In this document: one piece after another, positions 7,992 to 11,209 of the stretch | How positions within the stretch are numbered: the first letter of the stretch is position 1 | How the letters are laid out: each line of letters opens with the position of its first letter | Source of the DNA: an uncultured Spirochaetota bacterium | GTDB lineage: Bacteria > Spirochaetota > Spirochaetia > SZUA-6 > Fen-1364 | Reading direction: 5' to 3' | Length of the DNA: 64,000 nucleotides | Assembly: GCA_963781885.1 (NCBI GenBank) | Contig: CAWAHW010000004.1 | Coordinates: 416,001 to 480,000 of the forward strand | Made by a program: the position numbers and the translations under genes | The notes under the pieces: model-generated | Seen by the model: the letters and a program-made list of their open reading frames with translations, nothing else | Told to the model about the DNA's origin: nothing | Databases searched by the model: none

Positions 7992-10416
7992 ATTCGAACT
8001 CCTACAATGAACTGGGGCTTGAAAACCAACTGGGAATCGCTGTACCCCGCGATGCCGGAGGAAAGCCACGGTGTGAGGATCGGCATGGACACACCCGCGT
8101 TCACGGAGAGACCGCCGAAGAGCGGAAGCCCTGCAACGGCGTGCAGGCGCGGGTAGACATCGCCGGAGAATGCCGTGCTCGTATCCGCGGCGCCGGTGCG
8201 ATCCTGGACGATGGAAAGATCGTAATCGAGATAGAATGGACCGATGGTGGAGCTTCCGCCGACGCCCAGGCCGATGTTCCAGTCCGTGGTCCCGGGCTGC
8301 CATCCCGCGGTGAACGTCGTGTACAAGTGCTTCGTGCCCAGTGAGAAACCGACGATCGACAGCCCGTTCATGTCGATCCACATGTCAAGGTCGTGCCGGC
8401 CGCGGCCTTCAATGGAGATCAGCCCGATGGGGATGCCGTCGATCTGATCGGAGAGATTCACCAGCCCCACCTGCGTGCCGGTGATGTGACGGGCGATATT
8501 TACCAGACCGACCTGGACGCTCGCGCTGTCGGCGACATTGATGAGGCTGATCTGCGGCCCCGCGATCGCGCCGCCCACGTTGCCGATGCCCGCCACTTGC
8601 GCGCCCTGTACGCCGACGGCCCCCAGATTGAAGATGCCCGCCACCTGCGCGCCCTGCACGCTGCCCGTCGTCCAGTTGAGGATGCCGGCCGCCTGCGCGC
8701 CTTTCACGTCGCCGCTGGTCCAATTGACGATGCCCGCCAGTTGTGCCCCGGTCACCGGGCCCAGAGAAATGTTGGCAAGACCGCCCGCCTGTGCGCCGGA
8801 CACGCCGCCGCTGATATTCACGAGACCCGCCGACTGGAAGAAGCGCGCCTCGCCGCCCAGGTAATTGACCATGCCGGCCGCCTGGAAACCGGAGAGCGAG
8901 CCTTGCACGACATTGAAGAGACTCGCGGCCTGGAAACCGGAGACGTCGCCGGACTCGATATTGCCGAATCCGCCGACCTCGAAGCCGTGGAGGGAACCAG
9001 ACGTTCCAATGAGAAGGTTGATCGAGACAATGCGATCCGCGCGCGCGTCAGGCCCCAGGAGGAAGTCAGGGATCAGCGACAGGTGGAAAGCCTGCACGCG
9101 GGGGGCCGCCTCCGCTTCCTGATCACCGGTGGGCGTCGCCGGCGCGGCGGTCTTCTTCGGTGCCGGCGCGACAGGCGCCGCCGCGGCGGCCGCGGCCGCG
9201 GTGATGGCCGCGCTCACGGCATTGCCGACTGCCTGGCCTGCCTTGCCGAATGCAGAGCCCACCGCGGCGCCGACTGCGGCGCCGATCACGGTGGCGGCGT
9301 CCGGTGCGCTTGCAACCTGCCCGGTCGGGGAGCCGCCCGGCGCCTGGTCGTTGCCGTCGCCGCGCGCAACAGCCGGGTCAAGCGACACCGGGTGCATGCC
9401 CGCAAGCGTCAGCGTGGCAGGCTGCCGGCCGGTCACGTGCAGATCGGCGGCAAGCCGCGCGCTCTTGGTGTCGAGCACGGCGGAATACGTGCCCGGCTCC
9501 AGCCCGAGATCGATGCTCTGGCCGTACTGCTTGTTCAGCTCCACGGCGAGATTCCCGTCCGAATCGCGCAGGTAGAGCCTTCCCGCGACGTCCTCCGCCA
9601 CGACAAGCCGCGCGCCGGACTGCCGCAGGTCGGTGAGCACCAGGTCGCCTGACCCCGAGAGATTGATGTCATAGGCGGGATGCTGCGGCCCGTACTGGGT
9701 TTTCTCCGTGGAAGCAAGCGTCTCCTGGAAGGCGTAGGTGTAGGCTTCGTTGAGGGTCACGATGCCGTCCCCCGCCGTGTCGGCGGCGCCGCGCATGGCG
9801 GAGATGAGGAAATGGGTGAAATACGACGAGCCGATGCGATCCGATTCCTGCGCCGCCTCCTCCGCGGAGGCAGAGGTGAGGAATGCGTGACCGGTCATGT
9901 CCGCGGACGCGTCGAAGAGGAATGCCGGCCGCGCGACCCCGCCCTTCGCCCGAGTGAGCGAGCCGGAAGAGCAGGAGTCGAGGATGGCGATCTTCACGTC
10001 CGCCGGGATGTCATTGATCTGGTTGCGCAGGTCATCCCACGCGACCCGGTCCTTGCCGAGGATGAGCCCGTCGTCGTCCGAATGACCGGAATAGTAGAAA
10101 ACGAGCTCGCGTCGTTCATCCAGCTCCCGCGGCGAGCCAATCATCTGGCGGATGCGCTGGAGGGCGTCCTCGAAGCGCTCGAGTGTCGGGCTGGAGACGA
10201 GCACGAGGTCCTGCGGCCGCACGCCTCCGAGATCCTGCATGACCGCGGCAAAGGCGCGCGCGTCGCTCTCCGCGTAGCGGAGCTTCACGAGAGCGTCCCC
10301 CCGTCATTGGAGCCCGTGACGAAGGCAAAACGCCGCAGGGGCACCGGCGTGTCCGCCGCGGCAGTCCACGCGATAGCACCCAGGAGGACAAGAACCAAAA
10401 GTTTCCGCATTTTCAT
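7988..10416 (-). CDS. Exported caspase-family (peptidase C14) protease with GxQxAGxxN repeats and putative C-terminal beta-barrel; apparent 1-bp deletion in G-run near 10297-10302
   Basis: Signal peptide plus RRFAFVTGSNDGG joins KLRYAESDA if one G is added; catalytic FYYSGH (His 10082-10084) and ILDSC (Cys 9971-9973). Confidence 0.85.
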
Positions 10417-10420
10417 GACG

Positions 10421-11209
10421 TTATCCTTGCTTGCCCAGGACGAATGAGTACTGTCCCAGACCGGGGGGAAGGGAGAGCGTGGCGCGGTCGGCGGTCGACC
10501 CCTGTGCCGCCAGCGCGCGTGCGTTCCGCTCGATGACCGTGACGTCGAAAGGAGAGGCACCGTAGACGAGGAAGAAGCGCTCGAATCGGGGGGCATCGTC
10601 CAACTCATAGGCCGCGGGAAGGATCACGAGGCCGCGACTGTCCAGCGCCGGCGCCGTGCGGGCGCCGCCTGCATACCCCGCGGGCAGGTGCCAGGTGAGC
10701 GTGCCGCGTCCATCAATGGAGAAGATCACGCCGTACTTCGCGTCGCCGGCCGCGTAGCTCACCTGCAGGAGGTCGCCGCGTCGGGCAACGGAACCGGGCC
10801 TGAGCTCCTCAGAAACCCCCCCGGCCGTCTTGCGGAAAACGGTGAGGTGAGTGGAGAATCCCTTGAGGCGCGTTTCATCCGGCCGCAGCATGGTCACGGA
10901 AAGCGTGAGCGCGATGAGGATGGTGGCCGCGATGGGCAACGCCCAGAGGGGCCCGACCCGGCGGCGCGGCCGCGCCCTACCCGCCCCTTCCCGCAGCATC
11001 CTTTCGCGGATGCGGGGAACGAGCTGCTCCGGCGGATAAGAGGCCAGGATTTCCGCATCGGAGTCCCGCAGAGCGGCAAGCCTCGTCCTTAAATTGGCGT
11101 CCACGGCGAGCATCGCGCGCACGGTGCGCTCCGCATCGGCCGGAAGCTCGCCGAGCGCATACTGTTCGAGCATCAGGTCGGATATCGTCCTTTTTTGCTC
11201 CATGTTCAT
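10421..11209 (-). CDS. Putative transmembrane anti-sigma factor with extracytoplasmic DUF4384-like domain
   Basis: Anti-sigma-like N-terminus LEQYALGEL; one TM; GDLLQVSY...YGVIFSIDGRG...YELDDAPRFERF; overlaps the sigma gene. Confidence 0.75.
   Translation of the reverse strand: MNMEQKRTISDLMLEQYALGELPADAERTVRAMLAVDANLRTRLAALRDSDAEILASYPPEQLVPRIRERMLREGAGRARPRRRVGPLWALPIAATILIALTLSVTMLRPDETRLKGFSTHLTVFRKTAGGVSEELRPGSVARRGDLLQVSYAAGDAKYGVIFSIDGRGTLTWHLPAGYAGGARTAPALDSRGLVILPAAYELDDAPRFERFFLVYGASPFDVTVIERNARALAAQGSTADRATLSLPPGLGQYSFVLGKQG

Follow-up and report, generated by a model that had tools for sequence, protein, structure and literature searches.

A three-gene cassette of extracytoplasmic function sigma factor, anti-sigma factor and exported metacaspase-like protease, with a T-R-x-K-G motif common to protease and anti-sigma factor

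The site-1 proteases of anti-sigma factors are, to our knowledge, serine or metalloproteases, and we know of no dedicated, operon-encoded site-1 protease of the caspase family that has been shown experimentally. In the DegS/RseP-RseA and PrsW/RasP-RsiW systems, a periplasmic site-1 cut takes off the bulky domain and is followed by the action of an M50 site-2 protease, a logic that also underlies the proposal made below. Two described systems combine a caspase-related protease with an anti-sigma-like protein. In Craspase, the caspase-like protein Csx29 cuts Csx30, an anti-sigma-like protein bound to the extracytoplasmic function (ECF) sigma factor RpoE; the preprint places this cut between M427 and K428, at the N-terminal edge of the C-terminal domain, and identifies this domain as DUF4384 in some Csx30 orthologs (bioRxiv 10.1101/2022.08.17.504292). 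In DdvA, a periplasmic CHAT domain has been proposed to cut the linker proximal to the transmembrane helix before RseP, a model that the cited reports present as unvalidated (PMC11506125, PMC6061681). The window analysed here, a 64,000-nucleotide stretch from an uncultured Spirochaetota bacterium (GCA_963781885.1, contig CAWAHW010000004.1, positions 416,001 to 480,000), harbors a self-contained three-gene signalling unit formed by an ECF sigma factor, a predicted single-pass anti-sigma factor and a Sec-exported metacaspase-like protease (hereafter, the caspase). A T-R-x-K-G motif is found both in the loop that follows the catalytic Cys of the caspase and in the anti-sigma factor, immediately outside the membrane. 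Comparison of the sequences suggests, with the case for and against evenly balanced, that the caspase is the site-1 protease of this unit: it would cut the anti-sigma factor after Lys116, the remaining stub would pass to an RseP-type site-2 protease, and the caspase's own loop would copy the site, to be autoprocessed or to act as a pseudosubstrate. A literature search on ECF/anti-sigma pairs with caspase, orthocaspase or Peptidase_C14, to which supplementary ECF classification tables were external, returned no description of the cassette.

The three genes are co-directional and closely packed on the minus strand, in the order ECF sigma, anti-sigma and caspase, and the start codon of the anti-sigma gene overlaps the stop codon of the sigma gene (Table 1). 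The sigma factor is matched above cut-off by Sigma70_r2 (PF04542, E 1.6e-14), Sigma70_r4_2 (PF08281, E 9e-07) and TIGR02937 (E 1e-21), and its 159 residues comprise the sigma-2 and sigma-4 regions only, as expected for group IV of the sigma-70 family. The anti-sigma factor is matched below cut-off by NCBIfam NF052375 (E 2.4e-09, 37.5 bits against a cut-off of 100) and by PRK13920 (E 7.3e-09). Its periplasmic domain scores under the gathering cut-off of PF14326 (E 0.097, 13.2 bits against 27) and is therefore termed DUF4384-like, not a member of DUF4384; among 111 anti-sigma homologs, 48 match DUF4384 at E ≤ 0.01, the best at 1.4e-06. Solved structures gave chance-level matches only for this domain (E ≥ 0.099), which harbors an invariant Ser, two invariant Asp and an invariant Glu.

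This arrangement is widespread. Anti-sigma homologs were sought in 401 genomes of the phylum Spirochaetota and found in 59 of them, one genome of the phylum holding four such cassettes. All 62 loci of the phylum other than that of the window were examined: the caspase lies directly downstream of the anti-sigma gene in 61, and the sole exception is an anti-sigma locus cut by a contig end. Scanning the caspase alignment against one genome per species revealed 536 relatives among the candidate stretches, from which 79 loci were kept. Judged by record titles, they belong to Spirochaetota, Myxococcota (Archangium, Corallococcus, Myxococcus, Citreicoccus and Enhygromyxa), Latescibacterota, Fibrobacterota, Acidobacteriota and others. 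Among these 79 loci, an anti-sigma gene stands upstream of the caspase in 73, a sigma match is present in 70 (two of them outside the canonical place), and no fourth conserved gene was found around the cassette. When 1.84 billion cluster representatives were searched with a profile, 1,948 anti-sigma clusters (50% identity) were matched at E ≤ 1e-30. Sigma factor, anti-sigma factor and caspase are encoded by separate genes in all loci. Two apparent anti-sigma-caspase fusions (L077, 2574-5783, and P0002) were dismissed as frameshift read-throughs, with Arg-rich out-of-frame stretches, in high-GC metagenome assemblies. No genuine fusion was found; looking for anti-sigma factors of greater length yielded P0002 alone, in itself weak evidence on this point.

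The cassette resembles Craspase in its caspase-fold protease, its anti-sigma-like substrate holding an ECF sigma factor and a cut at the edge of the C-terminal domain, all of which are here predicted from sequence. Craspase, however, is cytoplasmic, RNA-guided and CRISPR-linked, it employs a separase-like TPR-CHAT protease, and its P1 residue is Met or Leu. The cassette instead combines a Sec-exported C14 metacaspase-like enzyme, a predicted P1 Lys and a single-pass substrate that would be cut in the periplasm. Its protease is of the C14 type, cas genes are absent and a conserved fourth gene is lacking, which places it outside Type III-E Craspase; PADLOC assigned neither the caspase nor the anti-sigma factor to a defence system. 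The likeness to DdvA lies in a periplasmic caspase-family module proposed to act as site-1 protease beside a membrane helix, RseP coming next. In DdvA, this module is of the CHAT type and fused to the anti-sigma factor, its active site is incomplete, no cut site is defined and its distribution is narrow. The cassette, in contrast, has a wide distribution, a candidate site that is precisely conserved and a separate gene for a C14-type protease whose His-Cys dyad is complete; since its genes are separate in all loci, it is not of the DdvA type, in which a TPR-CHAT module is fused to the anti-sigma factor.

The caspase protein is composed of a caspase domain, a β accessory domain, an Ala/Gly/Pro-rich low-complexity linker, LA_2272-type repeats and a C-terminal domain. 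NF047832 matches it with E 2.6e-17, its score of 63 falling short of the 140 that NCBIfam sets for the subfamily. Among solved structures, Arabidopsis metacaspase-4 (AtMC4, E 1.4e-06) comes closest. The catalytic His and Cys align with His86 and Cys139 of AtMC4, as in the His-Cys dyad of clan CD, and the Ser at His-2 and the Asp at Cys-2 align with Ser84 and Asp137; these four residues are invariant in 111 of 111 homologs. In AtMC4, Asp137 and Ser84 are described as part of the S1 pocket that binds Lys225 (PMC7206013). The comparison of this pocket covers the p20 residues (Asp and Ser); invariant Glu residues stand in the SQESD block of the caspase. The caspase shares with AtMC4 and CgMCA-I the His-Cys dyad, together with the Asp and Ser found in a basic S1 pocket. 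Both of these metacaspase zymogens process themselves after a Lys or Arg situated past the catalytic Cys, with a linker Lys in the active site; for CgMCA-I, self-processing has been reported in trans, at Lys263 and Arg307 of the loop that follows its catalytic Cys238 (PMC9622860). The segment from the catalytic Cys to the next strand is only ~28 residues long in the cassette caspase and its candidate Lys is found at Cys+9, compared with +25 and +69 in CgMCA-I and +86 in AtMC4. Unlike both, the cassette caspase is exported and carries LA_2272 repeats.

In the window itself, a 1-base frameshift, due to the loss of one base in a G6 homopolymer, separates the signal peptide and first β-strand from the rest of the caspase. 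The signal peptide segment is continuous with the caspase domain in 29 of the 29 homolog loci examined, and the contigs of one peat-metagenome run (0.20 of sampled words) do not span the run at 10297-10302. This frameshift is either an assembly error or the mark of a real pseudogene. Because it splits the gene, the window caspase ORF (open reading frame), devoid of strand 1, has no Pfam match even at E ≤ 10; the cut-off of Peptidase_C14 (21.4 bits) is exceeded by the intact homolog L071, 76% identical, with 30.1 bits and by another homolog, L144, with 26.2 bits.

A first-pass annotation of the window, made from its letters, had placed TRAKG just after the catalytic Cys and TRLKG just outside the membrane, and both map exactly to the positions given there. 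TRAKG spans the sixth to tenth residues past the Cys, with its Lys at Cys+9. TRLKG spans the fifth to ninth residues past the membrane helix, from which it is separated by RPDE. The annotation had also noted a third basic-Gly site, VARG, closing the accessory domain: it is indeed found there, right before the low-complexity linker, at 9359-9370 instead of ~9357-9369. The annotation had proposed to look for co-conservation of R-x-K-G in homolog pairs, which is what is observed, with K-G essentially invariant on both sides and the Arg at ~90%. After duplicate removal, 133 unique caspases were available, 127 of them paired with an anti-sigma factor. In the caspases, P1 Lys and P1' Gly are present in all 133, P2' Gly in 130, P3 Arg in 115 and P4 Thr in 107, and P2 is variable. 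In the anti-sigma factors, P1' Gly is found in 127 of 127, P3 Arg in 114 of 127, and P2 is mostly Ile, Leu or Val; P4 is Thr (56), Ile (28) or Val (14), hence one of these three in 98 of 127. P1 Lys is present in 125 of 127 as aligned, the two exceptions being one misalignment, in which the true site is visible, and one partial ORF; once the former is resolved, it is present in 126 of 126 full-length sequences. Among the 150 best independent anti-sigma cluster representatives, Lys is found in 150, Gly in 149 and Arg in 143. The third site follows the consensus E-x-T-[V/A/R]-x-R-G, with Arg in 125 of the 133 caspases (Lys in 6 more), Gly in 132 and Thr at P4 in 86.

In the anti-sigma factors, the motif forms an island of conservation. 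A variable linker is followed by [D/E]-x-[T/I/V]-R-[I/V/L]-K-G, a Pro-containing connector and a first strand, L-x-V-Y-R-K. Lys and Gly have zero entropy and the other linker columns 3.5-3.9 bits; K-G accounts for two of just eight invariant columns in the periplasmic part (111 sequences). A crude estimate of the distance from the Lys to the helix over 125 loci gives 0-46 residues, with a median of 15. R-x-K-G is absent from the two other DUF4384 proteins of the genome: L147 (G000:C4:488510-491740, ~10 kb past the window), in which DUF4384 is fused to a domain that appears papain-like by eye, and L146 (G000:C7), a small secreted protein.

The likeness of the two motifs exceeds what chance would give. 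In the 2,016,382 residues of the genome's 5,309 six-frame ORFs of at least 200 residues (spurious ORFs included), TR.KG is found 22 times, or ~1.1e-5 per residue; its presence in two adjacent genes is therefore unlikely by chance, with the reservation that the motif was picked post hoc. The profiles of the two families were further compared over all 87,978 pairs of 5-column windows (127 anti-sigma and 133 caspase sequences). The TRLKG-TRAKG pair ranks first with 9.92 nats, the runner-up reaching 8.28. This value is reached in 0 of 300 column-permutation nulls (maxima 7.24 +/- 0.72, highest 9.63), and controls with real families also remain lower, with maxima of 6.79 for anti-sigma against sigma and 8.09 for sigma against caspase. 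Domain homology was discarded as the source of the shared motif (hhalign probability 1.3%). Both motifs are extracytoplasmic, the caspase having a signal peptide and the anti-sigma motif lying past the membrane helix. The topology therefore fits the interpretation of the first-pass annotation, according to which one recognition sequence would serve both self-activation and anti-sigma cleavage.

The tetrapeptide preferred by a plant metacaspase is reported to be VRPR (PMC10235996). Its pattern, a β-branched P4, an Arg at P3 and a basic P1, is shared by [T/I/V]-R-x-K. In the mechanism that we infer from these features, in which the signal, every proteolytic cut and the succession of events are conjectural, an envelope signal would activate the exported protease. 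This activation may entail that its T-R-x-K-G-G loop, the Lys of which lies 9 residues past the Cys, is processed or displaced. The protease would then perform the site-1 cut of the anti-sigma factor between the invariant Lys and Gly of [T/I/V]-R-x-K-G, between the helix and the DUF4384-like domain, leaving a stub of ~8 periplasmic residues for an RseP-type site-2 protease. An M50 gene (Peptidase_M50, site-2 protease) is present in the genome (173.6 bits). Degradation of the cytoplasmic part of the anti-sigma factor would release the sigma factor, which would drive its own operon from a TGACA-N16-GTGTT promoter. The caspase loop and the R-G site of the accessory domain may serve as autoprocessing, pseudosubstrate or release sites. 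The broader proposal, that of a widespread periplasmic route in which an exported metacaspase acts as site-1 protease, its activation loop copying the T-R-x-K-G substrate site and a single specificity serving both, is put forward tentatively, with a little less than an even chance of being correct.

It may alternatively be that the two motifs are independent structural elements, a turn or hairpin in the caspase and the N-terminal edge of the domain in the anti-sigma factor, with a coincidental likeness, and that the caspase is an output of the system or senses something unconnected with cleavage of the anti-sigma factor. This is considered unlikely, albeit with a chance that deserves to be taken seriously: the motif pair is the best local profile match of the two families, above all nulls and controls, the anti-sigma motif stands in an otherwise unconstrained linker and is lacking in the two other DUF4384 proteins, and the P4/P3/P1 pattern is that of metacaspase preference. 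Several observations nevertheless favour independent structural elements or weigh against a recognition sequence common to both proteins. On the caspase side, TRxKGG is kept in five orphan caspases of the family devoid of anti-sigma factor (L099, L128, L139, L140 and L144), and G-x-R-[KR]-G is found at Cys+7 to Cys+11 in unlinked caspase families of the phylum, in 5 of 12 loci. As these unlinked families and orphans carry a basic-Gly after the Cys, the caspase motif is independent of the anti-sigma factor; it may be a general fold or turn feature of bacterial caspases. Its conservation also says little, because the whole segment from the Cys to the next strand is highly conserved. Further conserved basic-Gly pairs, LRGAAD in the caspase and DGRG in the anti-sigma factor, are probable core elements. 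On the anti-sigma side, the number of residues between K-G and the first β-strand hardly varies, and K-G could belong to the fold; in the window, Lys116 is 8 residues from the end of the helix, which may hinder access. The strict synteny suits an output gene equally well. Locus by locus, no robust covariation was found between the two motifs: P2 is identical in 26 of 125 pairs against 14.8 expected (p 0.0005), this value becoming 0.036, 0.077 and 0.42 when relatives are clustered, and P3 and P4 show no covariation. Finally, the window caspase, being frameshifted, is possibly inactive here.

The unlinked caspases of the phylum with a basic-Gly past the Cys (L149-L151, L153 and L154) are ORFs of ~740 residues carrying D[A/T]CHSGN[I/V]MG[T/S/A]R[K/R]G, and two other caspase-like ORFs of the genome (L002 and L003), which also lend themselves to a structural explanation of the motif, carry Arg-Gly pairs in the 14 residues that follow the Cys. 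A basic-Gly some ten residues past the catalytic Cys may thus be a wider trait of bacterial caspases. Three of the orphans, L099, L140 and L144 (Citreicoccus and Myxococcus), have neither a sigma nor an anti-sigma gene beside them and lie downstream of genes for a lipoprotein and for a large protein resembling TonB-dependent receptors. This large protein has H-R-V-K-G in 3 of 3 loci, an occurrence that counts once because the three loci are orthologs.

The co-conservation of the motifs that suggests cleavage by the caspase is equally expected if they dock without being cut. The anti-sigma motif and the DUF4384-like domain would then bind the caspase active site as a pseudosubstrate, inhibitor or tether and hold the protease inactive at the inner membrane, and signalling would consist in the release of the protease, or another protease would make the site-1 cut. 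In AtMC4, the linker Lys is described as sitting uncleaved in the active site, self-inhibiting until Ca2+ is present (PMC7206013). DUF4384 is moreover listed as fused to proteases in 23 cyanobacterial orthocaspases (PMC8283722, Table 1), DUF4384-protease fusions are stated in the Craspase preprint (bioRxiv 10.1101/2022.08.17.504292), and the apparently papain-like protein L147 of the genome provides another. However, the caspase is the only protease conserved in the cassette, the trypsin-like protease encoded downstream being present in one other locus only (L071), and docking without cutting is judged improbable.

It is very improbable that the juxtamembrane domain of the anti-sigma factor cleaves itself at K-G, like SEAL/RsgI or CSS anti-sigma factors, the caspase being uninvolved. 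The autoproteolytic chemistries known to us need Ser, Thr or Cys at P1' or Asn at P1, to which an invariant Gly at P1' and a Lys at P1 are ill-suited, and self-cleavage would leave the identical motif of the caspase unexplained. Self-cleaving juxtamembrane anti-sigma domains have nonetheless been described (PMC10556640, PMC10328401), and the invariant Ser, Asp, Asp and Glu of the anti-sigma domain would be compatible with such an activity.

The sigma factor probably autoregulates its own operon, as suggested by a promoter-like element in front of its gene. Of 119 loci, 62 have TG[AT]CA/TAACA-N14-20-GTGTT ahead of the sigma gene, compared with a mean of 0.35 and a maximum of 3 in shuffled sequences. 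The spacer is 16 in 60 of these 62 loci, the element mostly lies 50-69 nt before the approximate start of the sigma gene, and the consensus is (G)GT[G/A]ACA-N16-GTGTT-nn-A. In its strictest form (GTGTTA), the element is matched at just one further place in the genome (G000:C5:32374-32400), and the regulon may therefore be small. A second promoter-like copy in the window (11734-11759, plus strand) overlaps the first, is divergent from it, and faces the small gene at ~11793-12380.

This small gene (11733-12380, plus strand), upstream of the cassette, encodes a secreted protein with a signal peptide and recurs in 5 loci of close relatives besides the window. Another small secreted protein with a signal peptide is encoded downstream (7464-7856, minus strand) and was not found in the other loci. 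Both are Gly- and aromatic-rich, end with an aromatic residue and look like small outer-membrane β-barrels; neither has a Pfam match. Also downstream, on the minus strand, are found a MoxR-type AAA ATPase (5409-6440) and a membrane-anchored trypsin-like serine protease (6437-7321), which were not retained as members of the module since they recur only in L071, the closest relative.

Table 1. Location of the cassette genes and of their elements in the window
Feature	Positions	Strand	Basis
ECF (group IV) sigma-70 factor, 159 residues	11206..11685	-	Pfam Sigma70_r2, Sigma70_r4_2; TIGR02937
Candidate ECF-type promoter TGTCAC-N16-GTGTT, upstream of sigma	11713..11738	-	motif scan
Single-pass anti-sigma factor, 262 residues: N-terminal sigma-binding region, membrane helix, periplasmic domain	10421..11209	-	
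Predicted transmembrane helix of the anti-sigma factor, residues 86-108	10886..10954	-	23-residue hydrophobic stretch in the sequence
TRLKG of the anti-sigma factor, residues 113-117, candidate scissile bond Lys116-Gly117	10859..10873	-	mapping and conservation
Periplasmic DUF4384-like domain, ~145 residues (118-262)	10424..10858	-	weak PF14326 match
Metacaspase-like Peptidase C14 protein, main frame, 766 residues	7988..10288	-	
Signal peptide and first β-strand of the caspase, MKMRKLL...RRFAFVTGSNDGG, other frame	10288..10416	-	translation
Homopolymer, C6 on the plus strand and G6 on the coding strand; frame lost by one base	10297..10302	-	homolog comparison
YYSGH, catalytic His and Ser at His-2	10082..10096	-	aligned to YSGH of AtMC4
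DSC, residues 104-106, catalytic Cys and Asp at Cys-2	9971..9979	-	aligned to DSCHSG of AtMC4
TRAKG(G) of the post-Cys loop, residues 112-116, candidate autoprocessing or pseudosubstrate site	9941..9955	-	mapping and conservation
VARG, residues 307-310, possible third basic-Gly site	9359..9370	-	mapping and conservation
LA_2272 / VC2662-type repeats, residues ~526-614	8447..8713	-	NF047436 E 8.8e-10 (above cut-off); NF047437 E 4.6e-09 (below)

Site-1 proteases are known for few ECF systems, and very few substrates of bacterial C14 caspase homologs have been identified. The cassette offers a precise and falsifiable prediction of an enzyme, its substrate and the site of cleavage, in an anti-sigma family that is large and extends over several phyla, culturable myxobacteria included. 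If this prediction is true, proteolysis by caspase-family enzymes would be tied to the control of transcription in systems other than CRISPR, the DdvA model, itself awaiting validation, would gain support, and DUF4384 would acquire a role as a caspase partner domain. The cassette would then represent a bacterial caspase cascade ending in transcription, a cell-envelope counterpart of Craspase-Csx30-RpoE.

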